DNA of 64,000 nt from Naegleria gruberi (lineage: Eukaryota), in the NCBI GenBank assembly GCA_000004985.1, contig GG738846.1, one strand, 5' to 3'. The notes beneath the pieces were generated by a model, which made no database searches, was not told the DNA's origin, and worked only from the letters and a program-made list of their open reading frames with translations. The position numbers and the translations under genes were made by a program. Within the stretch, counting starts at the first letter, position 1, and each line of letters opens with the position of its first letter. Shown here in pieces: positions 20,153 through 41,111 of the stretch.

Positions 20153-23100
20153 TTAAATCCAATTTTTCTTTGCATCCCGAGTCCAAATTTGTAGCAATTC
20201 GGTGGATCTGAATATTCTTAACAAGTTTACAAACATGGTTTCTTCCATTGCCAAATCCTTATCCTCTCTTGCCTTGTAAATATCTTGACAATAACATAAA
20301 ATCAAATCTACATTGTCCAAATCTTCAAATGTAATTCTTCCAACAAGATTACTGCTGTATAAACGAACAAACTGAGCTACAGCCAACACAAAAGATGTAT
20401 AGAAGGTAATAATACCAAAACTACTGATGGCAGAAATGACAGAATCAGCTGCTACAATATTAGTACTCTGAATAAAAAAGAAAGGACCTCCAGTTATGCT
20501 CTTCAAATTACCACTCTTTTCCAAGGGATAGAACTTTGTTGGTTGTGTACATGACATGAACCAAGAGACAAATCCTGGTGGATTATGCACAAGTTCAGTC
20601 CTCGACGAGTTGTAAACATTTGTTACAGTGAGAGAACAATTTGGCAAGTATCGACTTTCCATAACTGTGGCAGTAGCAAGCGCCGAGTACTTGTTCATCA
20701 TGTATGGATTGTAAGAGAGTGGAATATCAATGCTCTCTTTCAAATTTTCAGAATTGACTTTGGAAACATTATAATTAATCATTTGAGCCAATTGTTTTCG
20801 TTTCCAAGCATTCAATACAATACTTTGCCGAGTTTCCAATTCCAATTGAGTGGATGGACCACTTCTTTTCACAAGTAAACTCATTGTCAAGTTGAGTGCA
20901 AGTGTCTCATTGGCCAATGCTTCCACCATACTCATTCTACTTGGTGTTGAAATGAGCCAATACCTTTCTGAATATGGAGCAAGTGTAAAGTTTTGAATCC
21001 AAAAAGTAGGATCATAATTAGGGAATAATTTCAATCCATTTCCGTCATAGAAATCAACAAAGGTTTCCAAACTCTTTTCTGGATTAACTTTGAAATATTC
21101 ATTCTGATAGAATGGCTCAAAACCTTCAATTCCAATTGAAAATTGAATACTATTCACAGTGTTATAACTGAGAGCAGGATTGGCAGTTGAATAGAACAAT
21201 AATGGAAAGAAGATAATCATGGCAAAGACAATAAATAGCAAAAGACCACTTGTTGCCTTTGTAGTAAGGAAAATACGATTACCAAATCCTTTACCTTGTA
21301 AAATCTTATACTCCAAGTCGCATTTTCTCTTATAAAGTTGACTATAGACATCTTCCAATTTCAAATATTCATAAAAAGTCAATGTAGTATCAATAAATGT
21401 CCAATCCAACAAGGTCTTCAATTCAAATACGAATGGAATTGCTCTGTAAACTAAATAGACGTATTGAGCAATGTAATAGTAAGACTTGGTAAAGAATTGA
21501 GTATATCTTCTCTTTGGATAGCCAGTTCTGATTTGTAAACATCCCAAAAAGAGATAAACACACTTGATAAAGAATAAAATCTTGAGGAGTACCAAACCAA
21601 TAGTATTCTGATTTCTGGAAACTTCAACAAAGAAGGCAATGTAAACAATATGATAAATTAATACAACTAAAAAGTGGAATATCAACTTGCCAGTTGCAGT
21701 GGCAAACAAGTACAATACACGTTCAATACAAATTTCAATAAAGAATAGGAAGAGAATAATGACAAATGTTCCAGAGAGCTCATTAGATTTGATTGCTCCC
21801 AATGTTTCATCGGCAGCTCTACCACTCATACTAGAGAAACTAAAGAAGAAAAAGACAAATGCCAAAATTTCAACTGCAACAGTTACAACATAATAATCTA
21901 TACCAAGTTTGAATTGATCATTTGTTAAACCCTTAAAATGATTAATAAACTTGGATAGTCCTCTTCTGAAAATATTTGGCTTTTCACTGTTATCCTTTTT
22001 ACCTTTCTTATCTTCTTCTTGTTGAACATTGAATTTGACAGTCTTTTTGGACTCTTTCTTCTCCTCATTGTTTGTTGCATTGGATGGTCGAGGTGTTGCA
22101 GTCATGATATCATTGGTTACTAGCTCGACAGATGTTGCTGTGTTGGCTCTATTTCTTCCAGTAGTAGTAGTAGTATTGGTGAGAATTTGTGAATTGGATG
22201 GTAAAATCATTTGATCATCTCTTGGTTCAATGGTAGCATTTGTGGTTGTAATAATTGGATTATCTTGTTGTGTAGTGTTATTTTCTTGTTGATTGGCAGA
22301 GGCAAGTGCAGCTGCAGATAATCTCTTCTTTCTCGAATTGGTCTTCCATTCTCCACGATTTCTAGTAATTTCACGATGGAAAAAGATTGCAAGCATAATT
22401 AACAAGTACATGACAATATCAGCCAATAGAGCTGTACTTGGTTGCCATCCCAATAAGAAAATTGCTGGATCAGATTCAGTTGATTTGAGATTGTCAGGTA
22501 AACCAGATTGTACTAGATATAAAATATATTGAACACTAATCAATAGTTGAGCCAATATAAGCATGAGTTCCCAAAAGTATCTGTGAGGATATGGATATTG
22601 CATGGCTGCATATGTCAATGAAAAGAACGTAAAGGCCGTATTGAAATAAGTTGGAGCATAGAGTAAATTAACCAACATGGCAAAGTAACAAATGACATCC
22701 GTATTGCTGAAGAATAGTTTGGTAAGGGCTACGAGTAATTGTTTCAATTTCAATACAATTGGAACCCAATTGAATGGTTTCTTTTTCATATCGGGATGAA
22801 CTTTGGATTGTTCAAGTTTGAGTTGTAATAAATCATTCAACTCTTGTGTTGTAAATTCTTTTGATTTGAGATTTGGAATATCAGCTTGATCTTCCTTTTC
22901 CTCCTTTTCTTTTTCATCTTCTGTTAATTTAATTTCATCTTCAGGTTGTTGCTCCAATTCAACAAGTGTTTCAGTAGTGGTGGTAGTTTCATTCTTCTTC
23001 TTCCACTCCTCTTCCTTTTCTTCAATGTATTCATTGATGGCATCTGCAATAATTTCATCCAAATTAACTCTATATTTCTTCTTAATTTCCAATTCATCCA

Positions 23101-26100
23101 TCCAAGCAATTCCAATAAATATTTGAATACGATTAACAATCAAATCAGTTAACATGTAAGCGTAGTGACCAACATTGGCAAATACTACAGCAAGTAAACT
23201 CTTTGCTCTAAATAGGAGAGGTAACTTTGGAGTTGATTCCTCTTTCTTATTTTCTTGAGAACCTTCTTGAGCAATTTCTGGAGCAACTTGTTGAATGACC
23301 TTACTCAATGCCTCATTGACAGAGTCATTTCTAGCATGTTTGGATATAATATTCAATTGTTGTTCCAATTTTGAAGATGGTGCACCTAAAACATCGCCAA
23401 GAGCAACAATTCTATCATGTGGAACAATCTTGGAAAGGATATTCTTCATTACCTTTTGAACCTCCTCTTTAGAAATATTACTTGGAAGGAATTCTTGGTT
23501 TGGATCAGATGGAAGATCCAACTGACCACGCTCGAAATGCACAGGTCTTCTCTTTGCTGAATTATCAACTACTAGAGTGGAGCTCTTGTAATTTTGTAAA
23601 TTCTCCAAAGTTGAAACGACTTCTCTCATCTTTTTCTGGAATTTATGCTCTGCCTTCTTCAAGCACTTTTTCATTAATTGTTCTTCCTTATTCAGGTTAG
23701 AGACAATCTTTTTTCTAATCTTGGCTGATTCCTTATTCTCCAAATCCAATAAATCACTCATTGCAAGTGCTAAAATAGCGCGTTCTCTTTCAATCTTTTC
23801 TGAATTCTTGGCATATGCATTGACTACCTTTTCATATTCTTCTTTGAGCATGTGCTTTCTATTGTAGAAACTTTGGAAATCAGAATCCTTGTTCACTTCA
23901 TGGAAACTTCTGAGTGCTTGTCGGTTGGCATCTCTTCTCTTTTCTGAAAAGAGTCCCTCTGCAAACCTTGATAAAATTTGAGCAGCTCTATAAGCTTGAT
24001 TTCTTCTGTACTTGGTGGCCCGTTCTTGACTTTCTCTGTATAGTAAATTAATGAAATGAATGTAATCCTCACTTTCGAATAATAAAATTTGCAAGTAATA
24101 GAGGCAGACTACAATAATTTCGGTGGTAAAACTTTCAAGGCCTCTTGCTTTAAGACCAAATAGGAGGCAAACATTCTTTACCCAACCACTTGTATCATTT
24201 TCGTTACCCCAATTAATAGGATCTCCCAACAATACAATTGGAATTTGATAAATTGCATCAATTACAAATGTTAAATAATAAAAAATACCAATTCCTCTCC
24301 AGAATGGAACTGTTCTCCAATACAATCTATTAAACAAGTTCAAATAGAATAAACAGAGAATCATTTGACCTAATTTGATAACATTTGAATCGATGGCTGC
24401 ATCAATAAACATGACAATCAAGACTATAAAACAAAAGAATCTATAAACTATCAACTTGATCCAATTCCACAATTTCTTTTGTTGATCTGGTGTTGTAAAG
24501 TCTTTGATTTTTTGAATTTTTCCTGTTTCAATGTTACGTTTGATTAAACTGCTTGTATCCAAGTGGACAATAAGTGCATTATCTAATTTCTGGGTTCTGG
24601 AAAGGAAGGATGAAACAATTTCACCTCTCTCACGTTTTGGAAGTTTTTCAGGTTGAGAAACTTCAATATGTTGCAATCTTGCATACATTCCTTTGAAGAA
24701 TACTCGTGCCTGCAAGGCCATAAAGAACATCATCAAGTAGAGAATGACTACAATGTACGTATTGCTAATTACTCCTCCAGATGTAGAGGTCAAATTGAGA
24801 ATAATATACTTGCTAAATATTGGAATATTCATCATGGCTTCGTAAAATTGCATTGAACGAACTATTTGCAATCTAAAGAAGAAGAGAATTAACATGTTAA
24901 TTTCAACAACCATTACTAAAAAGATCCATCCTCTTCTCAAAATTGTACTATTCTTTCCAGTAAAGAAACAAACACCAAAAACAATCAAATAAATGAATCC
25001 CCACAATGTTTGAATCAATGAAAGTGATCCTAACAATAGAGTAAAGAGAGAAATTTCAAATCCATAATCATCATAAAAGTGATTACAATAATATTTGAAA
25101 GATGAGAATAGCTTTCGTAAAAACTTGATAATCTTTCTCTTGTAGAAGGATTTAAAGTTTTCTTCTTCAGTTAAATCAGTTGGATGATCTTCATCAAAGT
25201 TCATCTTTTCAAATTCCTCTCTACTGATATAGATGGTATTTCTATTTCTCGCCTTGGATTTTCTCTTGTCAGCTGATGATGAAGGTCTCAACTTTTGAGC
25301 AAAACTAGCCATTGGATCATTCTTGCTTTTAACATTAACTTCTGCCTCTATGAATAAACATCCCTCATCATAGAGACCTCTACTCTTCATGGATCTCTCC
25401 CAACGATAGGTAACCTTTTGGAGGAGAGATGCAACAAATACCAATAAACTAGACCACAATACATTTCCAATGTGATGTCCTTCTGTTGATCTAGCATCTT
25501 CAAGTCCAATATAACCCAACCAAGTACAAACACCAGTGGAACGACCAAAATTCTCAACTTGATGTTGAACAATTGCTCCCAATGCACTATCACACAAACC
25601 ATTTGTAAAGAATGGATGTTGATAAATATACTTGATTGTCATGATAAATCCACTGTAGAGAGCTATCAAGAACCAAATCTTACTAGCAATAACAGGTGCA
25701 GGAGCAAATACAAGAACTAAAACCAAATAAATCAGACCAATAATATTTGGATTAAAGTTGGAAGCCAAGAAGAGGAAAATAATCAACAATTTAGGAGTAT
25801 GCATAACACAGAAACGTTTCATGACCAAGAAGCATTCCAATAGGAGTGAATCTATTTGCTCACTGAATATAATTTGTTTCTCAATTTTCACATGAGATGA
25901 TTCTTGAATAGTTTCAACAATTTCGTCCATCAATGATGGTGTATGTTCATGAATGTGTGTTGGACCAGTAGTAGTAGTAGGTGGTTGTTGCTGTGGTTGA
26001 TTTGGAATAGTTTGTTCTTGTTCTTTCTTTCTAATTTCTTCTTGTTCCTGCACTGTCTTGATTCTTTGTCTTCTTCTGCCAATAACAAATTGGAAATATT

Positions 26101-29100
26101 TCAATTGAACAATAGTCAATATGGCAATGATCGTGAAAGGAAGTAAACTGACATTCTTGTATTGGTACTTGTATAGACCAATGCTCTTTGGGGTAAGATA
26201 TCCGTAATATGAAGGAATTTCAATTGACTTGTCCAATTCATGTTCTCTGATAAGTTGCTTTGCTCTTTCAACTTCTGGCAAGATACTTTGAATGTAGGCG
26301 TACAGGGATGGGAATTGATAAGCATACTCTACAACAAATACCAAAGTAGAATAGAAAACAAAGACGTACCACAAGCCAACAAAGAATTGGAATAATCTGT
26401 AACCAGCTTTTGTGGAATTTGAATTGTGAACTGAGAGAACATTTAAACAGAAACATGCCATAACAATCATTAGGAATATGAATCCAATAAATGATGCTTC
26501 TTCTTGAAGGAAAATTACCAAAAAGACTGCAAAATAACTTGCCAAAGTTCCTAAAAAGTTTAACAATTCAGTTTCTAAAAAGATCTTATCCCAAACAAGA
26601 ATTAATTTTTCAAAGAATGTGTGCAAGTATGGATTCTTTTCTTTTGTAAACATATCCCATTGATCAAAACTAGTATTAACATTCACATTACCAACTGTCT
26701 TTACATTTGAAATATGATATTGAATACTGGTCAATGTTAGAATGAAAATGTGCCAAATAAGTCCTTTCCAAAACACTCCAAAACTACTTGTACTAATTTG
26801 ATTTTCAATTGTAATAAATGATGGATTAAAACCTATAATTTCATACGGTAAATCAACAACTTCAGGTGCGTACCACACATTGAAGAAGTACAAGGCAAGA
26901 ATAACAAATTGACAATATAGAACTAATAAAATCCATGTTTTTCTTGCAAAGGATGGGAAAATGAAATAGACAGCACAAAATATTACTTGGAAAATGTTAA
27001 ATTCACAGTGTGAAAAAGTAACTTACAATAAATAGCATGAAGTAAATCAGCATTTTCAGATGTCAAATCGGCAAAGTAGCAAACAATCAAACTCAAATAG
27101 AAACTGTTTCTCACAAAGAGAATGAGCAATACTTTCCAAATATAGTCAAAGAGTATAATCTTAATAGTTTGTAAAATCAACTTGATCTTAACCCAAACTC
27201 TTTTAGATGTATTTTGTGGTTCACACTCAACCTCTCCCAAATTATTGTCTGCTTCATCATTGATTTTATCCAATTCAGTCATGTCAACATTAGTTGGGTC
27301 TCTAATAGAATCTGAGAATACTGAATCATGAATAGATTGATCACCCATTGCAGGAGACATTATAACATCCAAATCACTATCTTCCTCATTGGTATAATAG
27401 ATGGATCTACGTTTAATATCCATAGAAGTTGATCTGTTACTATTAACAGAATCATTTGGAACAAGGGGAGCTGTATCATCCATTCCATAGTTATTATTGA
27501 TAGAACGTTTGTGGAACCAATATTTTGTAGATTTTAAAAATGCTAAACGTTATTCGAGTATTTGAATAAGAAAACATACCTTTTCGTTGAGAACCAGTCG
27601 AAGCAGCAGCAGTATTACTTGTTGATACTGTTTTTTTATGTCTCTTCAATAGCTTGGATACAGCACTAACTCTTACAGTCAACCCCATAAATAAGGACAA
27701 GATTAATTGACCAAAAATGACTGCAACAAGAACAATAGATCTACCACTATCACTAACATCTGTTAAAAAAGCTCCAACAGTTGTTCCTACAATGGCTCTA
27801 TAGAGAATTCCTTGAAGAGGATAAAACAATACTCCTCCACTTCCAGATGGATTAAATTCTTTTAGTAAAAGTAGTATGTGAAAAATTAAATAAATAATTA
27901 CAATTAAAACATACCATTTGCTGACATTTCTGTGGTTTGTGGAATGTATGATGCAAAATTTGGCATTTGGAAAACATATTGAGCACAAATATAAAGCAAA
28001 CTATAAATGAAACAGAAAGGTAACAGAATTACCATGACCTTATTGGTTTCAAATCTTGGTCCTGGTGATAAAACCATACCAAGATAAAGGAAAAGTAAAT
28101 AGGGAAGTGAACACAAACTTGGAACGGACAAAATGATACAAATCAATGCAATCATCAATGCATAGAGAATGAACTTTTGCAATTGTTCATATAAGAACAT
28201 TCTAAACTTGTAAGATGATTCATAAATGGAATGTACACCACCTGCAATTCCACCCATTGAAGTGTGTTCATCAATTTCTATTAATCTTCTCTCTTCAGAT
28301 TTATAGTACAAATCCTGAAGATATTCCTCAGAGTTTGTATCCAAATCTTCCTTATTAGAAATCATGGTTGGCAAAAGTGTTAAAAACTTTTTAACTTGTC
28401 TTTGTAGTTCTCTTTCTTGTAAAACTTTTGCAATATATTGACAAACAAAGTTACAAGCCAAGATGAATGTAATTAGAACAAATGTGATGAAAACATATCC
28501 AGTGTAGAACTTTTTGAAAAATTCAAATGATTTCAAATTACCATCAATATCAAAAAATCCAGCCATTTTACCATACGGATTTTGTAAAATCATTTTAGAA
28601 AAGTAACCAGTTGAGGAGATTGAATTGGTTTGGAAACGTGTTAAAAAGTAGAAAATGAGCAAGAGTATAGAATAAACTTGTGTAAATATAAATAATCTAA
28701 TGATGAATTGTAATAGTTATGAAAATTATTATAATTATATATTAAATTTAAAATAAACATACCCAATTGAAATAAAAGTCTTCAAGCTACCAAAACTGGC
28801 AAGTGTAATAATTAAAAAACTCAATAATAAATAAGGAATTCCTACAAAACTTGGATAAAAACTTGCAGTAATCATCAAAAAGAGTGCGAATATAATCAAT
28901 TTCAATTCATGAATATTGACATGTTTCTTTTCAGTCTTTTCCTTTGGAGGCATTGATCCAACATGAGTTACTGAAGTTTTCAATTCTTGTACAGAACATG
29001 TCAAGAGCTTTGGATGTTTAGTAAAAACACCAGGTAAATCCCACATGTACATGGTAGCTCCCTTAACTTTAGGAATTGATTCAATTTGTTGTTTCTTCAA

Positions 29101-30630: not shown

Positions 30631-33600
30631 TCAATAATTAGCAGCTGCTGCCATAGAATATGTTGACTGACCATTAGCAAGTGGAATATTCATCATGGAA
30701 CGAGCATATCTAGTTTCTGCCACCTTAATCTTTTGTGATTTTTCATCCTCAACTCTGTATCTCTTCCGACAATACACTGCAATTACAATAAGAATTATCA
30801 CAATAATGCAACAACACACCAACAAGATTGCTCCAACAATTGTAATGGCAACTACTCCTAAAAGAGTCCAATCGAATGAATAGGTGGTTGTTGCTTTCAT
30901 TTGTCCAATCAATATAACATTACCCAACTTGTTACAGGTACAACTAATTGATGTTCCTGTGTAGGCTTTGACACTACAACCAAACACAACTTTCAAAGCC
31001 TGATCATAGTAGGCACAATAAGTTTTCGAATAATTGAATGAATCTGAAATGTTTCTCAATGGGAATGTATAAACAATGGTAGAGTAGTCTACCATATTAT
31101 TATTAATGTTATCTTCTCCAAAATCTAAAGAAATTGAGAATGGTGAAATAACATATGGTGTAATGATAAATCCACTTTCGGTAATGGTCATTCTATCAGC
31201 AATTTTAAAAATGTCCTTTGTTGTCAAAACTGAATAAACAATATTGCTTTTAGAAAAAGCCTTTGGGAAAACATCGCCAATAAATGAAACAGATGAATCT
31301 TCTCCCAAGTCAATTTTGATTCCCTTGTATTGTAATCTTGGTACCTTTGCTGAAACTAATCTAAATGTTGTGGAAATGAATTGGGATGGATCAGTTCCAA
31401 TAATTTTGTTTCTCATTAGGAATCTAGAAGACTTTTTTGCTAGGGCCACAGCAGATATCATATTGTCTTCTTCACCTCTGAATGATCTCCACTCAAAATA
31501 TTTGAACATTGATTCTAAAGAGTAGTGGATCAGTAATTGAACATTTTTTGATGGAATGATTTCTTGAGTTTCAGTCATTCTGGTGAGTGTTTTATCGAGA
31601 AGGGAAATAGTGTTGGATACAACACTTGTTGCCACAGAGGTATAATCTCTCAACATTGAATCAATGGCAACAAGAATCAAATGTAAATGGTAAATGTTTG
31701 GATCTGGGTGCATAATTAGAGCAGTTTTCAAGTCTGACATTAAACTGACCAAATTATCTTGAAGTTCTTTGAAATCGGCAATTTTCATTGAACAATCTGA
31801 TCCATAATATCCTTCAATACATGTACAAACACCTTCACTCACAACACCGTTCATACAAGTAGTTCTATTTGGGTTATTCATATTGGCTGAAATTGACCTC
31901 ACAATAGCACTGGCAGTGTAGAGATTTAAATTCCAATTTCCTTCAGAATTTGAGTAAAGATCAGTCCAAAATGAAACTTTTTCCAAAATATTCTTTTCAA
32001 AAGACATTGGAAGGATGGTCACTTTAGAAGTAATTCCAATTTTGGCCATAGTTTTAGTGTTAACAACATCCAAAAAGAGTGAAAGTTCATTCCCTGCGTA
32101 TGGAGGAGGAAGAACTGCTGAATAAGTCTCTCCCAGGACTGAAAGAGGAATTTTGGTAAATGTCCTTTCTTCCAAGAAACCATAAACTATATCCAGTGTT
32201 TGATTTTTTAAACATGATGAGTCACAAACATAACTAAACTTTGTTTCCATAAAGATACCAGTAGATTGTTGAATTTGGCAAGAACACAGAGTTGGATTCT
32301 TTGCAACTTTGAAAGAATAAGAGGTTGTTGCAAGCCTTCCACTAGAATCTGCAATTGTTACTGCTAACATGTTGTCAGTACCATCTGTTAAAGAATATGC
32401 AGGAAAAATGACAAAATCACTCGTAGAAGGAGTTGAAGATTGATCACTTAACTCGACACCATTCAAAGACCACTTCCTCGATGAGATTGTATCTAACATT
32501 GACTGAGAATAAATTTGGTAGACAAATGCTTCATCTGTTGTTATGGTCGTTCTTTTAGGAACCGTATCTATGACACTGATAACTGGTTTGTCTGAAAGTA
32601 CCATTTCAATAGAAGATGTTGCTGTTCGTGAACCTTTCACAACCATTAAAGTGAGAATGAATGAAGAACTGGTTAAAACAATGTCCTTAGTGAGATCGAA
32701 TGAGGTGGATTGTGTTTTACCATAACTATTCAATGCTGTTTGTAAGGTTGTAGAACATGCTGGATCGCATGACCATGTCCATGTACTACTTTGGGTATTT
32801 AACATATCGGGATCATAATACTCCACTTCAATGTGGGCTGTTGTTGCTGATACCAAATATTGAATTACTCTTAACTGAAGTTCAGGAGAGTAGGTTGTTA
32901 TCTCTAAATCATCATAAAAGTAAAATGATCCATCAAATGCAGGTGTTCCAACTCTAAAGACATACTTTTGATTACCATAAGAGTACAGTCTATTGATTTG
33001 TAAATTAGAATATGTATCTGTTGTAAAATCTACAAAAGGTCCATAAATTTGTTTCCATGAAATTGTAAAATTGTATTCTTGCTTTGCCACGCAGGAATAA
33101 TCCAAGTTGGTAATTTGTTTTCTGAAAATTGTTGGAACGTCTGTGGTGGCGAGAGTTCTATTATTCTTTCCAACAATTTCTATAGCAGGTGGAGGAAAAC
33201 CCAAATTCACAACAGTAATAGTCTTTGGAATACTCAAAACTCCAGTAATAGCATCTTTAACCGTGAGGGTAAGATCGAAGCTTCCATACACTGTAACTTC
33301 TGTGGTTGTAAGGTTGAGAAATGGTGTTGAGTATTGTTTCACATAACTTGTTTTAGTTTTGTGTTGTATAGTCCAAATATAAATAAAAGGATTTCCATAT
33401 GAAGGTGTGCTCATTTCTCCATTAATAACTATAGGTTGGCATTTGTGAAATTCAGTTAATGTATAAGAAAGCATAGCAATAGGTCTTTGTTGTTCAAATT
33501 CACAAAAAGTTCCATTGTAACCATTTTTGCATTGGCATTTATCAGGTTGAAGACAAGATCCCCTCCCATTACAGACATAAGATGTGTTACTATAGAGAGT

Positions 33601-34089
33601 TGAATTGCAATAGTAATATTTACAAGTATATCCAGAATATCCTTCATTACACAAACAATTATTTGGAGAGTTGCACTTTCCAAAACCACTGCACACTGTT
33701 GGGTTATTATAACTCTTACCATAACAAGTTAGAGTACTATTGCAATAGGTTCCAACCCATCCATAAAAACAAGAACAACTTTCATTTTCCACACAATTTC
33801 CATTCCAACATGGAAACGTTAAACAATTAGTCGATGATTGAATTGTTTGATTGTTACTTGTCGGTATTGTACTGTTCACCACACTGGTTTCATTGCTACT
33901 TATTGAATCGTTGGTGTTTTGCACCAATCTCTCCGAATGAAGTATTTTGTTAATTCGTGATGATATATCATTCGTCTGCAGAGTTTTATCTGTCGATGAT
34001 GTAAATGTTGTCTCTAAATTTAGGAGTAAGACTAAGCAAGCGATGATAATAAATAGAAAAGGCTTAATTGTTAGTTGTGATGATTTCAT
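30631..34089 (-). CDS. Type I transmembrane surface protein. It has a signal peptide, N-terminal tenascin-type EGF repeats, a roughly 900-aa Ser/Thr-rich beta-sandwich ectodomain, one TM helix and a short cytoplasmic tail.
   Basis: ATG at 34089 (MKSSQLTIKPFLFIIIACLVLLLNL...). The track start at 34125 is a TTG. EGF signatures include CWNGNCVENESCSCFYGWVGTYC and CNGRGSCLQPDKCQCKNGYNGTFC. The TM helix is LLGVVAITIVGAILLVCCCIIVIILIVIAVY, followed by the tail CRKRYR...AAAANY. Confidence 0.75.
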   Translation of the reverse strand: MKSSQLTIKPFLFIIIACLVLLLNLETTFTSSTDKTLQTNDISSRINKILHSERLVQNTNDSISSNETSVVNSTIPTSNNQTIQSSTNCLTFPCWNGNCVENESCSCFYGWVGTYCNSTLTCYGKSYNNPTVCSGFGKCNSPNNCLCNEGYSGYTCKYYYCNSTLYSNTSYVCNGRGSCLQPDKCQCKNGYNGTFCEFEQQRPIAMLSYTLTEFHKCQPIVINGEMSTPSYGNPFIYIWTIQHKTKTSYVKQYSTPFLNLTTTEVTVYGSFDLTLTVKDAITGVLSIPKTITVVNLGFPPPAIEIVGKNNRTLATTDVPTIFRKQITNLDYSCVAKQEYNFTISWKQIYGPFVDFTTDTYSNLQINRLYSYGNQKYVFRVGTPAFDGSFYFYDDLEITTYSPELQLRVIQYLVSATTAHIEVEYYDPDMLNTQSSTWTWSCDPACSTTLQTALNSYGKTQSTSFDLTKDIVLTSSSFILTLMVVKGSRTATSSIEMVLSDKPVISVIDTVPKRTTITTDEAFVYQIYSQSMLDTISSRKWSLNGVELSDQSSTPSTSDFVIFPAYSLTDGTDNMLAVTIADSSGRLATTSYSFKVAKNPTLCSCQIQQSTGIFMETKFSYVCDSSCLKNQTLDIVYGFLEERTFTKIPLSVLGETYSAVLPPPYAGNELSLFLDVVNTKTMAKIGITSKVTILPMSFEKNILEKVSFWTDLYSNSEGNWNLNLYTASAIVRSISANMNNPNRTTCMNGVVSEGVCTCIEGYYGSDCSMKIADFKELQDNLVSLMSDLKTALIMHPDPNIYHLHLILVAIDSMLRDYTSVATSVVSNTISLLDKTLTRMTETQEIIPSKNVQLLIHYSLESMFKYFEWRSFRGEEDNMISAVALAKKSSRFLMRNKIIGTDPSQFISTTFRLVSAKVPRLQYKGIKIDLGEDSSVSFIGDVFPKAFSKSNIVYSVLTTKDIFKIADRMTITESGFIITPYVISPFSISLDFGEDNINNNMVDYSTIVYTFPLRNISDSFNYSKTYCAYYDQALKVVFGCSVKAYTGTSISCTCNKLGNVILIGQMKATTTYSFDWTLLGVVAITIVGAILLVCCCIIVIILIVIAVYCRKRYRVEDEKSQKIKVAETRYARSMMNIPLANGQSTYSMAAAANY

Positions 34090-34266
34090 TTTTTTAACTG
34101 TTAAACTGCTTTTATAAGCCGCCAATTCCTTGTGCTTTTCTAAGTGGGCTCTGGAACTTTAATTTACAGTTTCTTTTTTTGGACTTGTGAAAGTCCATTA
34201 CAACTTTTACCATTAAGGCAGTAAGGATATATGCACCATTTGAATATTTTCATAATTATTTGTGAA

Positions 34267-34419: not shown

Positions 34420-37400
34420 ATGGTTCAAAACTTGCCATGCCTAACTAAGAGGCAAATACCATCGTCATCTTTTATTCTCACCATGAATTCTCTTGTAATA
34501 CTCCTCTTTTTATTAATTGACATATCACATCAGCAAGAAATCCTTAATTGCCACGGCTTTCTCTCCAATGATACAATGGTCTGCAGTGGACACGGAACGT
34601 GTATAGCCAATAACCATTGCTCATGTAGGCCTGGTTATGGTGGTGAACAGTGTCAAGAAATTTCATGTTTTAACAATTATCCAAGGATGGTTCAATGTAG
34701 TAATCATGGAGAGTGTATTGCCCTCGATACATGTACATGTTACGATTTATATACAGGTCCAAATTGTGAACAATGTAAACAACCATTCCATGAAGGAGAA
34801 CATTGTACTCCCATTCAATGTTTTGGTGTTGAATATTCAGTGAAGAGTGTTTGTTCTGGTAATGGTGATTGCATTGCATCAAATAATTGTTCTTGTCGTG
34901 ATGGTTTTGTTGGTGAGAGATGTGAACAATTCACTTGTTTAAATTCAACTCTGAATAATACAGAATCAAACAATTCAGTGTTGATTCCATGTTCTGGACA
35001 CGGAGAATGTGTCAAAGCCAATAATACATGCAATTGTTATTCGGATGTTTTGTATGGTTTTTGGGCTGGTGCAAATTGTGATTCTTGTAAATCAGGTTAT
35101 GGGGGAACAGAATGTAAGGAACAAGTTTGTTCCTCATTAACAACTTGTAACGGTAGAGGTGAATGTACACAACATAATGAACCAAAGAATAATGTGAAGT
35201 ACTTCTTTGCTGGTTATCAATTAATATCAAGGAGTGCAATTCGTGCTCAAAATTTCAGAAATTTAACATTAGAGGGAAGTATTGCAACTGAAGGAGGTTT
35301 CTCAGTTCAAGTTTTGAGATCAGCATATGGTCAAGTGAATGTAAGAAATGACATTTCAAAAAATATGGTCAACTCTGCTATTTCTCTCTATCAAGAATTT
35401 TCATCTCTTGATTGTGATCAAACCATGCAACAATCCATTCCAAGTGGAGGTTTAAATCTAAAAGCTGGCACTTACTGTTTCCCACAAGGGTTAAATGGAG
35501 GAGGAAAGATTTCTGTTTCTGGAAGTGGAAGAATTGTCTTGATTTTAAAAACCAATTTGAATTATGGCTTCACTGTTGAATATTTAGATGGTGCCACAGT
35601 TGATAATCTATTCTGGGTAGTTGCTATGGGTAGTTCCATTAGTGGTAAATTCTCTGGTAATTTACTGACAGTTGGTCAAATTAATGTTAATAATGCATTC
35701 ATTTCTGGATCAATTATCAATGTAGGATCTTCTGAAATGAACCTCAATGGAGCTTCATTCGGTCCAATCTACTCCCCTCCTGTAGTAGATCCTTGTAAAT
35801 GTTTCGGTAATTATGCTCCTCCATACTGTGAATCATGTAGTGCTGGTTTCTTTGGAGACAATTGTACTCTCTCATGCTCACCAGAAAGGAATTGTAATGG
35901 AAGAGGTCAATGTTCACAAACAGGTTCTTGCTTATGTGGACCAAGATTTTCTGGTGCCTATTGTGAAGTGTGTGCAACAAAATGGATTGGAAAGAATTGT
36001 GACTACTTGATTGGAGACAGAGCCATGTTGAAAATAAGCAAATTGACTATTCAATATGCAAATCCATCCAAATCTACCCAAATAGATTGTTCTTCGATTC
36101 TCCTTGACGAAACTGTAAAAGAATTAGGATCCTCTCCTCAATGTTATTGGGATGACAAGTCAACCAATAGTTTCGTAATTGATTTAGGATTTGGGAATAC
36201 CATATATGCTGGATCCATTCTCAAATTCAAACTTGAAAATGGAAACTCTGCTCTTGTCACTGTCTATACAGATCCAAACTCAACCAACAATCCCCCAACT
36301 CCAATTCTAAAAGTTTCTTCTAAAATCTCAACATGTGCCCGATTAGAATTGGATACCTCATCTTCATATTCTCCAGATAAGAAATCTATTAGTTACAAAT
36401 TTGAGGTGACATCAACTCCAAATGAAAATTCAATGGTAGTTTTGAGAAGGGAATTATCACTCTTTGAAAATCAAGCATTTTTCAATATAGCTGCTTCCAA
36501 ATTAGCTGTTGGATCCTACAGCATCAAACTAACTGTTTCTAGTCCAGTAACTGGAAGTGCTTCAACTCAAGTAACATTCGAAATCATCCCAGTTCCTCCT
36601 CCAATCATTGATATTCCTGGAGGTTTATCTCAATCATTCGTTTATGGATCTGTAGTTGTAATTAATCCTCAAATTAGCGTTGCAGGATGCTCTAATAATG
36701 ATGGTTCCATAATTTACTCTCCTGCCAAATATCAAGATTTTTCCTATAATTGGGAACAAGTTTCAGGAAATGCAACCAAATTTTCACAAGAATCCTATAA
36801 TAGAATTCTTGTCATTTCAAGTCTACAAAATGAAGGAAGTTTCAAATTAAGTGTCTCGTCCTCAACTGGTTATTCTGATCGAGTGACAGTTGAATTGAAA
36901 TTGAAAGAGAGTGAATTGGTTTTGAAAATAAGAAATGGTAATTTCCTCTATGGAAAAGTGAACCAAGCAATGACTGTTGATTTTTCTCAATCCTATGATC
37001 CAACTAAAACTTTGGAGAAGGAGGAATTCTCAATTGTTTGTATTCCTTTGGGAGTTCTTGCTGTTTGTCCAATTTCTGAAATCTATGCCAATGTGAATCA
37101 AGAAAAAATGTTCACAATCGCAGAGAATTCATTGGTTGCAGGTTTGTATCAATTTACCATTTCCTATTCGAAAGGACGTCGTTCCAAGACTGAAACAGTT
37201 GTTGTGGAATTGGCTGAATACGTCTTTTTGAATGTTTTCATCAAGATGGCCACCAATGATTTCCTTCCAACATCTGTTCCTTTGGGAATGAATGTTTCAT
37301 TAGAAGCAGTTTCTCCACCAGATATTAGAAATGAAGTCACCTACATTTGGAGTTCCAGGACGAGTGGATTTACTCTGAATGATCAAACAACAATATCAGG

Positions 37401-37824
37401 AATAACCGGACCATTTTTAACCATTCGTGGTGAAGTACTCCAACCAGATACTTTTTATACCATCAGATTAGACGCGCAGTGGAATAAGTTGAATGGTTTT
37501 TCAGAATATTATCTTGCAATTAATACTCCACCTAAACCAGGTTATTTTACAGTCAATCCATTACAAAGTAAATCTGGTATTGACACTGTGACGCTTTCAT
37601 GTAGTGGATGGTCGGATGATAATACACCACTCTCCTATCAATTCTTTTTCAATGATGCAAAAACTTCAAGTTGGCAAGCATTAACTGGAAAAGTTTCCAC
37701 CAATCAGGTCAATGTAATGTTGCCTCCTGGTTATGGATCTTCTTCTCAATTAACAATTAAGGCAAGAGTTTATGACTCTACAGGTGCATTTAGTGAAATG
37801 CAACAAGTTGTAATGTCCAGTTGA
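34420..37824 (+). CDS. Secreted multi-EGF protein with an embedded ice-binding-like (DUF3494) right-handed beta-helix domain (aa ~255-450, nt ~35185-35780) and a C-terminal GWSD...PLSYQF module. It is a paralogue of the C-terminal part of the 14755 gene. No TM helix or GPI tail is seen, so there may be an undetected 3' exon.
   Basis: The signal peptide is MNSLVILLFLLIDIS (ATG 34420, alternative ATG 34483). About 7 EGF repeats (CSCRPGYGGEQC and similar) are present. The IBP-like block is LKAGTYCFPQGLNGGGKISVSGSGRIVLILKTNLNYGFTVEYLDGATVDNLFWVVAMGSSISGKFSGNLLTVGQINVNNAFISGSIINVGSS. It mirrors the fungal/bacterial IBP consensus L.PG.YKW...DTWIFQI...GGAQAKNI.W.VAGAV......F.G.ILA.T...KTG...NGR.L. 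The C-terminal block is CSGWSDDNTPLSYQFFFNDAKTSSWQALTGK, against CGNGWSDPQSPLKFQFLYLDAASNNWVSLTEK in the 14755 gene. Confidence 0.75.
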   Translation: MVQNLPCLTKRQIPSSSFILTMNSLVILLFLLIDISHQQEILNCHGFLSNDTMVCSGHGTCIANNHCSCRPGYGGEQCQEISCFNNYPRMVQCSNHGECIALDTCTCYDLYTGPNCEQCKQPFHEGEHCTPIQCFGVEYSVKSVCSGNGDCIASNNCSCRDGFVGERCEQFTCLNSTLNNTESNNSVLIPCSGHGECVKANNTCNCYSDVLYGFWAGANCDSCKSGYGGTECKEQVCSSLTTCNGRGECTQHNEPKNNVKYFFAGYQLISRSAIRAQNFRNLTLEGSIATEGGFSVQVLRSAYGQVNVRNDISKNMVNSAISLYQEFSSLDCDQTMQQSIPSGGLNLKAGTYCFPQGLNGGGKISVSGSGRIVLILKTNLNYGFTVEYLDGATVDNLFWVVAMGSSISGKFSGNLLTVGQINVNNAFISGSIINVGSSEMNLNGASFGPIYSPPVVDPCKCFGNYAPPYCESCSAGFFGDNCTLSCSPERNCNGRGQCSQTGSCLCGPRFSGAYCEVCATKWIGKNCDYLIGDRAMLKISKLTIQYANPSKSTQIDCSSILLDETVKELGSSPQCYWDDKSTNSFVIDLGFGNTIYAGSILKFKLENGNSALVTVYTDPNSTNNPPTPILKVSSKISTCARLELDTSSSYSPDKKSISYKFEVTSTPNENSMVVLRRELSLFENQAFFNIAASKLAVGSYSIKLTVSSPVTGSASTQVTFEIIPVPPPIIDIPGGLSQSFVYGSVVVINPQISVAGCSNNDGSIIYSPAKYQDFSYNWEQVSGNATKFSQESYNRILVISSLQNEGSFKLSVSSSTGYSDRVTVELKLKESELVLKIRNGNFLYGKVNQAMTVDFSQSYDPTKTLEKEEFSIVCIPLGVLAVCPISEIYANVNQEKMFTIAENSLVAGLYQFTISYSKGRRSKTETVVVELAEYVFLNVFIKMATNDFLPTSVPLGMNVSLEAVSPPDIRNEVTYIWSSRTSGFTLNDQTTISGITGPFLTIRGEVLQPDTFYTIRLDAQWNKLNGFSEYYLAINTPPKPGYFTVNPLQSKSGIDTVTLSCSGWSDDNTPLSYQFFFNDAKTSSWQALTGKVSTNQVNVMLPPGYGSSSQLTIKARVYDSTGAFSEMQQVVMSS

Positions 37825-38351
37825 GTTTTTTTTAATCAGATAAAATCAATGTCAATGTACACTGCCCCAACATTGTCCAAATAAGAATGCATTAAAAAGA
37901 CTCTAATTCTAATTGAGATTTCTGCATTTTCAAATGTGTCCAAACACGATTCTTCCTTAGACAATATGTTTCATTTGGTAACTAGCACATCCTTAATTAT
38001 CAGTGTCGGTTGCAGAAAAACGGTTGGAGAAAGGAAAAAAAATCGATCAAAATCTACAACAGCAGCTGAGTCCTTCCAAACAGACATATACTCTCTTCTG
38101 ACCACTCACTCTGACTGAAAATTACCTTACTCTCCTACTAAGGCACCACTCTCTTTTTGCAAATAGCAATAACAGAAACAACAATATTACGGAGAGTTGT
38201 GTTGCATGAGGAAAATTTTGATTGTTTCAAAAAAACTCATATTGTGTTAATAGGAATTAAGCAATCATCATCAAACTCACTTCGGACACTATAATACTAG
38301 TAATAGAAGTATTTAAAATTTCAGAGTGGAAATACAAACGATTTACAAAAT

Positions 38352-41111
38352 ATGGGAGGAGGAAATTCAAAACAAAAACTACAAGTGGAAATGACTCTTG
38401 TAGATGATGAATCAAAAATTGATCTTCTCATTGATCATACACCAAATCCTGCAAAGGTTGGAAGCCCCCTTCCTTTCGTTAATAATACTTACACATTGAG
38501 AGCATCCACACCAACCTCAAACCTTCCACCAGAACCTACCATAACAATCAGCACAACAAATTCTCTCACCACTGATCTTAAACCGTACCTGCCCAAACAA
38601 AATTCCAAAAAGAATACTAACCCAAGAACTAACAAAACCAATAGTAACCCTTCCGAATCTAATTTACTTCCTAAAATTACACAACAACGTCAATCTTTTG
38701 ATGCTTCTATGCTTCAATCTGGGAGAAACTCTCCTGCTGGTGAATCTTCAACTATAGTAACTAATAATCGAGCAAAATCAAAATCAAACTCTAGGGTTGT
38801 GGATGTTCCTTCTCCGTCTGTAAACAATAACTTGTCACCAGCAGTTACTTTGGATGACAGATCAACCCTACTAACAGGATACAAGACACATAGTACTCAA
38901 TCACTAATGTCCTCAACTAGTATCAAAGATAGTGAACTATTGAATTTTCATGGAGATGTCTGTATTGAAAATAAGGCTCATCTAGTGAGCTTGGTAATTA
39001 GCAATATGGACGATATGGTTTTTATAATAACTGATTTGAAAAATAATTATTACATTTATGAAACTTCATACCCGAGGTTTTTACAGAAATTCTTTTCTGG
39101 TGAAGAAAGCGCAGCCTCCCTTCCACCCTATAAGAGGCATAGAAGAATGCTCGATATGATTGGTCTGGCATTCTCATTTCAAACCTACAGTGTTATTCCT
39201 GAGTCGGCCGATAACAATATCAAAATATCCCTTACCTTGAAATATCAAGCTGACAATATTGACAAGACAGTAGTGTTCAAGCTGATAAAGCATGTTCCAG
39301 ATTTAACTGATCCATCTAATAGGCTGATACACTCCACTATTTGTAAATTAATTATTGGTCTGTTTGGAAGTTATCACAATTCGAGAAAAGACAAAACAAA
39401 TATCCTAAGACAAACAATTCCAACCATGGCACTTATCACGGAAGTTGGAACAAATGCACAACAAGAAGATGAAGAGGAGGAAGAGGAACCTGAATACAGT
39501 TTGAGATCAGATAAATCTGAAGATGATCTAGTAAATCTTAAAGAAACCAAAAGAGAAGAAAAATCAAAAATGGATGAACCACCAAAACTCTCATTTTCGA
39601 TGGAACAGTCAGGAGAACAAGAAGAATCCAAGGTTATCAAAGTTAAAAAATTAGGTGTAAAACCAGCTAAAAAGTTTGTCACTGTCACAATTGATGAAGA
39701 GCCAGACTTGATTACCACTACAGAAATGGTAGTCTTTTTGAGAAAGCTACAAGCACTTCTATCTTTAAGAGATGATATTCCCTTCGATAAGAATAAGTTT
39801 TCTCTCATCATTAAAACCATAGCTAAGAATTCAGATATTGTTGAGGACGAAATTAAGGATACAAATCCTGATCTAGAAGTTTCAGCCTTCTTGAACGCAT
39901 TTGTAAAGCCTAGAGCAAAATCAAGGGAAAGGGCTGGGTGGAGAACAATTGCAAATCTCATTAGAGTTGGTGTTGTTTTCAAGCAACAAACTCTTCAAAC
40001 AACTGTCAAGAATATTAATGCAATCGATAGTAACCCTGGATTGGAAGAGAAATTGAAGAGTATAGATCGATATGACTTTGATGTGTTTGAATTAAATGAA
40101 GCATCGAGGGGAAAGCCACTGTATGTGATATTTACCTATTACCTTCGTCGATTTGGATTGTTGGAACATTTCAATATTGACAGAGAAGTCTTGCATGCAT
40201 TCCTTAGAGAGATTGAAACTCACTATGGGTACAATGCCTTCCACAATAGCATTCATGCTGCTGACGTACTTCAAACATTCATGTACCTATTAGATTTGAT
40301 AGGTATGATTCCGTTCCTTACTCATGAGGAATTGTTGGCTGTCATATTGGCAGCTGCCATGCACGATTTTCAACATCCAGGAACAACAAATCAATTCCAA
40401 ATCCTTTCATCCTCTGATTTGGCCATTACTTATAGTGACAAGTCAGTATTAGAGAGCCACCATGTTGCCTCCTTCTACAGAGTCCTCCAACAAGAGAAAT
40501 ACAACATTCTGAAAACACTATCAGCCAAACAAAGAAGGCAAATCAGAGAAATTTCAATTGGTCTGATATCAGCAACGGATTTATCATTCCAAGGAAGTTT
40601 TATGAATCAATTACAAGCAGTTTATGATGTTTCACATGGTCACATTGATTTAATGTCTGAAAAGTCTCTAGTTCTAAAACTTTGCCTCAAATTGGCCGAC
40701 ACTGCAAATACCTCAAAACCTCTCTATCTGCACTTTTCCTGGATCTCTCGGCTACAAAGAGAATTCTTCATCCAAGGCGATAAGGAAAAAGAGTTGGGTA
40801 TGGATGTTAGCCCTTTCATGGACAGAACCAAGTGCAACTTTACAAAATGTCAAAATTCTTTTATTGAATATGTGACCTATCCGTATGTGGCTTTATTCGC
40901 AAAATGCTTTAAAGAAGCAGCTCCAATACTGGAATATTCAAAACAAGTCAAAGAATATTGGTCGAATAGTGTGGTAGTTAGTACATTCGAGGAAGTTGAA
41001 CAAATGATTAGAAATGAGCTTGCAAAGGTTAATAAGGTTGTGACGCAGTCACATTTGGGAGCAAACACGTCATTCAACACGACACCAAGAGAACAAGGGA
41101 CAGAAGAATAA
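38352..41111 (+). CDS. Class I 3',5'-cyclic-nucleotide phosphodiesterase with a long Ser/Thr/Asn-rich N-terminal region and an N-myristoylation motif
   Basis: The start is MGGGNSKQ (MGxxxS). The C-terminal catalytic domain has YNAFHNSIHAADVLQT and HDFQHPGTTNQFQI (the PDEase_I HD signature HDxxHxGxxN), plus SVLESHHVASFYRVL. Confidence 0.8.
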   Translation: MGGGNSKQKLQVEMTLVDDESKIDLLIDHTPNPAKVGSPLPFVNNTYTLRASTPTSNLPPEPTITISTTNSLTTDLKPYLPKQNSKKNTNPRTNKTNSNPSESNLLPKITQQRQSFDASMLQSGRNSPAGESSTIVTNNRAKSKSNSRVVDVPSPSVNNNLSPAVTLDDRSTLLTGYKTHSTQSLMSSTSIKDSELLNFHGDVCIENKAHLVSLVISNMDDMVFIITDLKNNYYIYETSYPRFLQKFFSGEESAASLPPYKRHRRMLDMIGLAFSFQTYSVIPESADNNIKISLTLKYQADNIDKTVVFKLIKHVPDLTDPSNRLIHSTICKLIIGLFGSYHNSRKDKTNILRQTIPTMALITEVGTNAQQEDEEEEEEPEYSLRSDKSEDDLVNLKETKREEKSKMDEPPKLSFSMEQSGEQEESKVIKVKKLGVKPAKKFVTVTIDEEPDLITTTEMVVFLRKLQALLSLRDDIPFDKNKFSLIIKTIAKNSDIVEDEIKDTNPDLEVSAFLNAFVKPRAKSRERAGWRTIANLIRVGVVFKQQTLQTTVKNINAIDSNPGLEEKLKSIDRYDFDVFELNEASRGKPLYVIFTYYLRRFGLLEHFNIDREVLHAFLREIETHYGYNAFHNSIHAADVLQTFMYLLDLIGMIPFLTHEELLAVILAAAMHDFQHPGTTNQFQILSSSDLAITYSDKSVLESHHVASFYRVLQQEKYNILKTLSAKQRRQIREISIGLISATDLSFQGSFMNQLQAVYDVSHGHIDLMSEKSLVLKLCLKLADTANTSKPLYLHFSWISRLQREFFIQGDKEKELGMDVSPFMDRTKCNFTKCQNSFIEYVTYPYVALFAKCFKEAAPILEYSKQVKEYWSNSVVVSTFEEVEQMIRNELAKVNKVVTQSHLGANTSFNTTPREQGTEE

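Follow-up and report, generated by a model that had tools for sequence, protein, structure and literature searches.

How does a domain that in eukaryotes has been described almost only from stand-alone antifreeze or ice-binding proteins (IBPs) of ice-associated algae, fungi, diatoms and rotifers come to lie inside a large multidomain protein of Naegleria gruberi, and what might it do there? N. gruberi is a mesophile of temperate soil and freshwater, while eukaryotic proteins of the DUF3494 family (Pfam PF11999) have been read as recent bacterial gifts that opened cold habitats. The question is raised by a 64,000-nucleotide stretch of N. gruberi contig GG738846.1 (GenBank assembly GCA_000004985.1), here called the window and numbered from its first letter, in which one open reading frame (ORF) on the plus strand, at 34420-37824, encodes a cysteine-rich protein with EGF-type modules. 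Between these modules lies a segment of about 200 residues (aa ~258-455), which is a divergent DUF3494 member by profile, transitive and structural evidence, and whose homology to this family and IBP-1 fold we regard as virtually certain. A fold is hereby assigned to a previously unannotated ~200-aa stretch of what GenBank lists as a 'predicted protein'.

The DUF3494-like domain

In a Pfam scan of the isolated segment (aa 240-477), PF11999 was the sole match (E 2e-5, 24.8 bits, profile positions 67-192 of 208), and in the whole protein a sub-threshold PF11999 match at aa 318-430 (21.3 bits, E 2.3e-4) lies between EGF-type modules at aa ~44-250 and ~460-527. Searches that do not depend on the Pfam profile lead to the same family. 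Single-sequence phmmer against all PDB sequences returned nine matches at E<10, nine of nine being IBP/DUF3494 proteins (best E 1e-3), and exhaustive phmmer against 1.84 billion representative proteins returned 28 proteins at a library-wide E<=1e-3, of which those outside the Naegleria-type sequences are bona fide PF11999 proteins on a Pfam scan. Among them are P0060 (E 2.7e-38), in which PF11999 is found in six copies (924 bits), P0066 (2.1e-12) and P0070 (4.5e-8), as well as P0071, P0072, P0073, P0074, P0080 and P0079, the last being an 'ice-binding family protein' from a Nitrosotalea metagenome-assembled genome. The nearest canonical PF11999 proteins share 24-28% identity with the window domain, and a 1055-aa EGF-flanked protein with a canonical PF11999 domain (P0051, 70 bits), which also matches the window domain, bridges the Naegleria-type subfamily and the main family. 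P0060, the best match outside the Naegleria-type subfamily, is a 1468-aa protein from a 78-kb Joint Genome Institute (JGI) metagenome contig, and it carries a DUF7450 repeat and a faint Acanthaporin match besides its six tandem PF11999 domains.

A profile made from a 10-sequence alignment of Naegleria-type domains (profile A1) retrieved 22 IBP/DUF3494 chains from the PDB with near-complete domain coverage (E 1e-28 to 5e-8), after which the next matches had E>0.5. A word-indexed homologue search with the isolated domain gave no matches, the relatives surfacing in the exhaustive search, and the same kind of search with profile A1 gave only eight, adding little. No relatives were found by a metagenome scan with the single domain, and no second copy of the domain was found in the window when profile A1 was run against its six-frame translation. 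The sole metagenome match of a subclade alignment (A3), at positions 4001-4168 of locus L003, was rejected as a false positive, being a bacterial glycosyltransferase-like ORF with a chance AAGTYCFPQ.

AlphaFold2, run on the A1 alignment with no templates, gave a model of high confidence (pLDDT 87.3, pTM 0.86), in which an N-terminal coil of short strands is followed by an 18-residue helix (aa 311-328) and then by the strand stack of a beta-helix, the confidently modelled core spanning aa ~265-449. The predicted structure has the traits of the IBP-1 fold, namely a right-handed beta-helix, a long alpha-helix alongside and adjacent termini. When the model was compared with the PDB by Foldseek, the top 31 hits were all IBP-1-fold crystal structures (E 8e-9 to 2e-5, TM 0.6-0.77), whereas hit 32 had an E of 0.03 and a TM of 0.11. 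Thermus thermophilus ComZ (6qvi) is far more distant from the window domain, with 11% identity, and was undetected by the sequence searches. The fold named by the initial annotation is hence borne out by both profile A1 and Foldseek, which return IBPs only at the top of their lists. The motifs which that annotation had quoted are present in the protein (LKAGTYCF at aa 347, NLFWVV at aa 396, GNLLTVGQ at aa 413 and ISGSIIN at aa 428), and the interval which it gave, 35185-35780, corresponds to aa 256-454, as compared with ~35191-35784 for the domain as now delimited.

In structural alignments the window domain shares 13-20% identity with solved IBPs (of which Antarctomyces AnpIBP, 7bwx; Flavobacteriaceae IBPv, 5uyt; Colwellia ColAFP, 3wp9; FfIBP, 4nu2; and TisAFP, 3vn3, are examples), and its subfamily has a cysteine pair and a YCFPQGL motif of its own. 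The solved IBPs are stand-alone, secreted and from ice-associated organisms, whereas the window domain forms part of a 1134-aa multidomain protein from a mesophilic eukaryote. The conserved cysteines of the subfamily are C332 and C353 (window protein numbering), and together with the motif Q-x2-PS-x2-L-x4-G-x-YCFPQGL-x-G, located just after the helix, they are invariant in subclade members with unrelated partner domains. The sub-threshold score of the window domain means that the Pfam PF11999 threshold misses this branch.

Probable nesting within a laminin-type EGF module

The ORF and its features, all on the plus strand, are as follows:

34420..37824, +, complete single-exon ORF for an EGF / IBP-like / PKD-like / REJ protein of Naegleria gruberi (1134 codons plus stop)
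34483..34533, +, signal-peptide-like hydrophobic N-terminus, from M22, MNSLVILLFLLIDISHQ (Kyte-Doolittle scan)
34549..35115, +, EGF-like modules 1-4, aa 44-232 (Pfam EGF_2, EGF_Teneurin and EGF_TEN matches; cysteine spacing)
35128..35166, +, EGF module 5, first part, C237-x5-C243-x5-C249, Cys1-3 (spacing as in the first half of the intact module 6)
35191..35784, +, beta-helix domain of the DUF3494 / IBP-1 fold, divergent, aa ~258-455 (Pfam and subfamily profiles, transitive searches, predicted structure)
35794..35865, +, EGF module 5, second part, C459-x-C461-x8-C470-x2-C473-x8-C482, Cys4-8 (cysteine spacing; sub-threshold Pfam DSL/EGF_laminin at aa 473-525)
35875..36000, +, EGF module 6, aa 486-527, uninterrupted, with eight cysteines (spacing as in the split module 5)
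36739..36891, +, PKD/Ig-like segment, K319L-like_PKD, aa 774-824 (26.0 bits against a cut-off of 27)
36838..37806, +, REJ domain, PF02010, aa 807-1129 (166.9 bits, E 7.9e-49, profile positions 58-408 of 452)

The product is 100% identical to the GenBank 'predicted protein [Naegleria gruberi]' of 1082 aa (P0001), in keeping with the initial annotation's view of it as a eukaryotic protein. The P0001 model lies entirely within the ORF and starts at M53 (nt 34576), and the 52 codons that precede this start (34420-34575) encode a hydrophobic, signal-like segment (M22 NSLVILLFLLIDISHQ), hence the database model probably starts too late and omits a signal peptide. A signal-like N-terminus fits an extracellular cysteine-rich protein. 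Apart from this segment, the Kyte-Doolittle scan picked out a single hydrophobic stretch, aa 868-890, which falls within the REJ domain; nothing with the look of a membrane anchor was found. This pattern agrees with the earlier description of the protein as secreted, and it would indeed appear to be so.

The initial annotation placed the domain between EGF repeats, and EGF modules do stand on both sides; the cysteine spacing, however, suggests that it is rather nested within a single one of them. Cysteine positions define six EGF modules, and four of these (2, 4, 5 and 6) have an extra C-x2-C-x8/9-C pair, which gives the 8-cysteine laminin-type pattern. Module 6 reads C486-x5-C492-x5-C498-x5-C504-x-C506-x8-C515-x2-C518-x8-C527 and module 5 reads C237-x5-C243-x5-C249-[209 residues]-C459-x-C461-x8-C470-x2-C473-x8-C482, so that the two are superimposable in spacing, save that in module 5 the IBP-like domain stands where module 6 has its x5 loop from Cys3 to Cys4. 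Judged by the published definition of the 8-cysteine laminin-type EGF (LE) module (PMC5338690), module 5 has its eight cysteines spaced as C-x-C...C-x2-C and is interrupted after Cys3 and before Cys4; the Pfam EGF_laminin match is sub-threshold (19.1 bits against 21). As the flanking pieces contribute three and five cysteines, full disulfide pairing would need a bond across the insert (Cys2-Cys4, C243-C459). Moreover, the final coil of the DUF3494 fold ends beside the initial coil (PMC11645318), which would allow both termini to leave via one loop and makes nesting geometrically reasonable. Taken together, a position of the IBP-like domain between Cys3 and Cys4 of module 5 is, on its cysteine pattern, quite likely.

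A precedent exists in laminin, in which L4 domains are inserted at this same Cys3/Cys4 position of 8-cysteine LE modules (PMC5338690). In both cases a globular insert of ~200 residues at Cys3-Cys4 of an 8-cysteine module interrupts a tandem EGF rod. The L4 insert is a CBM35-like beta-sandwich, however, whereas that of the window protein is an IBP-1 beta-helix, hence the latter is not of the L4 family. As there is no sequence relationship between the two inserts, the shared architecture probably arose independently in laminin and in the Naegleria gene, which would thus show, outside animals, a laminin-type EGF module that has taken up a globular domain in its Cys3-Cys4 loop.

Paralogues and the role of the domain

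At least four other N. gruberi proteins, encoded on different large scaffolds, were found by cluster look-ups to carry the same divergent subfamily:

P0024, NAEGRDRAFT_76139, two copies of the domain with EGF and REJ
P0067, NAEGRDRAFT_71188, EGF, domain, EGF, REJ
P0086 (90%-cluster representative P0061), NAEGRDRAFT_49989, PhoPQ_related domain and IBP-like domain (PF11999 44.1 bits, above threshold)
P0063, NAEGRDRAFT_72752, 2816 aa with 15 Big_9, cadherin-like and VWA domains, IBP-like domain at aa 1496-1694

The P0063 domain is 41% identical to the window copy, and an environmental protein, P0065, has a subtilase fused to a domain of the same subfamily. As one of these paralogues (P0086/P0061) passes the Pfam threshold, the presence of PF11999 in Naegleria is already implicit in databases, although the literature searched yielded no paper linking Naegleria or amoebae to DUF3494. 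What is new is the sub-threshold lineage-specific branch, the range of its architectures, which number five or more in this mesophilic protist, and a probable L4-like insertion into a laminin-type EGF module. In a rough neighbour-joining (NJ) distance tree of 43 domain copies, the window copy groups with P0061, P0063 and P0062 (bootstrap 99/100), while both P0024 copies group with P0067 (100/100). The subfamily is found mainly in N. gruberi and a few uncultured eukaryotes. P0065 and P0068 lie on one 5284-bp JGI contig, the former call comprising the subtilase with the N-terminal half of the domain and the latter, of 71 aa, its C-terminal part. The pair looks like a single gene interrupted by an intron or a frameshift, which would point to a eukaryotic source. 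P0069 is a small relative whose contig also encodes a eukaryote-type RNA-dependent RNA polymerase.

That the module is shared by receptors, adhesin-like arrays, a protease and a PhoPQ-related domain indicates a targeting or binding behaviour, like that of a carbohydrate-binding module and unlike that of an antifreeze. The explanation which we favour overall, with somewhat better than even confidence when the proposed function is included, is that the flat beta-helix would bind some ordered or repetitive ligand outside the cell (a polysaccharide, the surface of prey or of a cyst wall, or matrix, for instance) and is not a dedicated antifreeze. The ~200-residue domain would project sideways from a rod of EGF modules, followed by the PKD-like and REJ segments, so that the EGF/REJ scaffold would present the beta-helix without a membrane anchor. 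It would have entered the lineage long ago, perhaps in a bacterial-type adhesin gene, with later duplication and shuffling among surface proteins and secreted enzymes. Judged by context, the chances that the ligand or surface bound is an extracellular one other than ice are about evenly balanced, and the adhesin-type role, rather than antifreeze, that the initial annotation allowed for is plausible. A bacterial parallel is SfIBP_1 of Shewanella frigidimarina (6bg8), which is among the top structural and profile matches and in which DUF3494 sits on a tandem Ig-like stalk in a proposed ice adhesin. There, too, a DUF3494 beta-helix is displayed on an array of small extracellular repeats, but the protein is bacterial, its stalk is made of Big_2 rather than EGF/PKD/REJ modules and its domain is terminal, not nested.

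Several observations weigh against this interpretation or parts of it. The PF11999 gathering threshold of 28.7 bits is reached neither by the whole protein (21.3) nor by the isolated domain (24.8), hence the PF11999 scan suggested at the outset has a significant E-value (2e-5) while falling short of the family cut-off, and NCBIfam gives only a far sub-threshold IBP_CFB match (21.8 bits against 400). The two Naegleria-type groups join at only 63/100 bootstrap in the NJ tree. Both the nesting and the reassembly of the EGF halves derive from cysteine spacing, and when aa 230-485 were modelled with AlphaFold2, the IBP core came out well and both EGF halves had a pLDDT below 50. The paralogues P0024 and P0067 carry the domain after a complete EGF module, not within one, which would make nesting specific to the window gene. 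Although its ORF is intact, the protein stops short of the C-terminal region found in the ~1800-aa paralogues and may be a truncated and possibly non-functional copy. Finally, because the ice-binding faces of IBP-1 proteins have, to our knowledge, no reliable sequence signature, the sequence itself would be compatible with ice binding.

The C-terminus bears on whether the domain does anything at all. The REJ match (PF02010) is well above threshold, and in REJ surface proteins of the polycystin-1 or sea-urchin receptor for egg jelly type, REJ likewise follows EGF and PKD-like modules. The layout is shared by N. gruberi EGF-REJ paralogues (P0024, P0067 and the window genes 14755-20049 and 30631-34125), only some of which have the IBP-like domain. 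The ~1800-aa paralogues and the neighbour at 30631-34125 (-) extend to a C-terminal transmembrane segment; the window copy, by comparison, ends at the end of REJ, at profile position 408 of 452, with no GPS site or transmembrane segment found after it, and no paralogue-like coding remnant was found in 37825-38351, before the next gene. The stop codon context (37818-37845: ...CCAGTTGAGTTTTTTTTAATCAG...) includes a GT...AG stretch of 20 nt across the stop; an intron over the stop codon near 37824 was nevertheless rejected, since 20 nt falls below the length of a Naegleria intron and no coding sequence comes after it, and the stop is regarded as genuine. The window copy is most simply a secreted form, a truncated copy being the alternative.

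The domain might also be an inert structural insert or spacer without a ligand of its own, as could be said of the laminin L4/LF domains, which have no known function, or, if the copy were a truncated one, a drifting relic. This is the best-surviving alternative, although we consider it unlikely. It would be in line with the absence from the window protein of the C-terminal ~400-700 aa of the paralogues, including the transmembrane region, and with an insertion topology identical to that of laminin L4, whose function is still unknown (PMC5338690). However, the ORF is intact over 1134 codons and all subfamily-invariant residues are kept, including the cysteine pair and YCFPQGL, which are common to copies in unrelated architectures; this invariance indicates purifying selection on the domain itself.

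A working ice-binding module is less likely still. The secreted protein would then inhibit recrystallisation or attach to ice, and so protect trophozoites or cysts during freeze-thaw. Against this stand the mesophilic way of life of N. gruberi and the high divergence of the subfamily, which shares 13-20% identity with solved IBPs and 24-28% with the canonical PF11999 proteins nearest to it, while the variety of its fusion partners (protease, PhoPQ-related domain, cadherin/VWA adhesin arrays) suggests a generic targeting module instead. In addition, eukaryotic IBPs have to date been linked with icy habitats and are lacking in mesophilic algae (PMC6892780); DUF3494 proteins also occur commonly in warm environments. 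A binding role other than ice thus being the one we retain, its boldest form would be an unrecognised eukaryotic DUF3494 branch in Naegleria and a few uncultured relatives, unrelated to ice, that is, a lineage-specific disulfide-stabilised binding module, anciently acquired, possibly in a giant adhesin like NAEGRDRAFT_72752, then shuffled into receptors, adhesins and secreted hydrolases, and here set into a Cys3-Cys4 loop, independently re-creating the L4-in-LE arrangement outside animals; this we put forward tentatively, at slightly less than an even chance. If it is true, the 'ice-binding' fold would primarily be a generic scaffold for binding surfaces or polysaccharides, with ice binding as one derived use, and the multiplication and shuffling of a DUF3494 subfamily in a mesophilic amoeboflagellate lends support to the view of a general extracellular binding scaffold of which ice binding is one specialisation.

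Origin of the domain and its genomic surroundings

Most DUF3494 domains are prokaryotic, and horizontal transfer is the usual explanation for those of eukaryotes, leading to the question of whether the domain is a recent bacterial acquisition or an artefact of assembly or contamination. The bacterial-type Big_9 and cadherin-like domains of the paralogue P0063 could be taken to favour the former. Yet the segment lies in-frame within a eukaryotic EGF module of a single ORF, and its GC (0.353) and GC3 (0.223) match those of the other gene segments (0.347-0.40 and 0.219-0.272), in a window with a GC of ~0.33 throughout. This agrees with the host-like composition and codon usage presumed at first sight, and with the reading of the domain as an integrated fusion rather than contamination, as the ORF is uninterrupted and EGF modules stand on both sides. 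No close bacterial donor was found by exhaustive phmmer among the 1.84 billion representative proteins, the nearest canonical members being only 24-28% identical, and members of the subfamily are encoded by no fewer than five N. gruberi genes, which lie on different large scaffolds. The low identity, the host-like GC and GC3 and the several paralogues together rule out contamination and recent transfer, which we therefore regard as highly improbable.

Hence no sign of recent transfer accompanies the horizontal origin that the initial annotation had considered: there is neither a close prokaryotic relative nor a foreign composition, the copies form subclades of their own in the rough NJ tree, and duplication and shuffling have carried the subfamily into five or more proteins of N. 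gruberi. Very probably the domain is an old resident. The data fit either an acquisition in the distant past or a very long inheritance, with duplication and domain shuffling afterwards, so that an ancient transfer, as opposed to a recent one, is compatible with them. That the domain of P0063 lies within bacterial-type adhesin repeats leads to the speculation that this protein was the vehicle by which it entered the lineage.

The weakest alternative, a spurious resemblance through a generic pectate-lyase/autotransporter-type beta-helix or a low-complexity chance match, could draw on the Pfam score below the gathering threshold, but it is refuted by profile A1 against the PDB, by exhaustive phmmer and by the Foldseek matches, the top matches being all IBP/DUF3494 and not of the pectate-lyase type, a best match to which had been named as a refuting outcome, so that its probability is negligible.

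The window holds further genes for surface proteins of the same kind. The product of a divergently oriented gene at 30631-34125 (-), 294 bp upstream of the ORF at 34420, is an EGF-rich paralogue of 1164 aa that bears a transmembrane segment at its C-terminus; it can be aligned with P0024 and P0067 over their C-terminal halves (tblastn E 4e-66 and 2e-70) but is without the IBP-like domain. A third EGF and REJ surface-protein gene, at 14755-20049 (+), encodes 1764 aa with a REJ match of 128.8 bits and sits in the only stretch of raised GC in the window (0.41-0.42 at 16-20 kb); Pfam assigns nothing to the first ~430 aa of its product, in which profile A1 detects no IBP-like domain. Two of the three EGF-rich surface-protein genes (14755-20049 and 30631-34125) flank a gene at 20153-26893 (-) for a 2246-aa homologue of Piezo-type mechanosensitive channels (Piezo cap 212.6 bits, THU9/anchor 230.8 bits). 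The next gene after the ORF at 34420-37824, at 38352-41111 (+), encodes a class I 3',5'-cyclic-nucleotide phosphodiesterase (PDEase_I, 236 bits), whose product has a long low-complexity N-terminal half and starts with MGGGNSK, resembling an N-myristoylation site.

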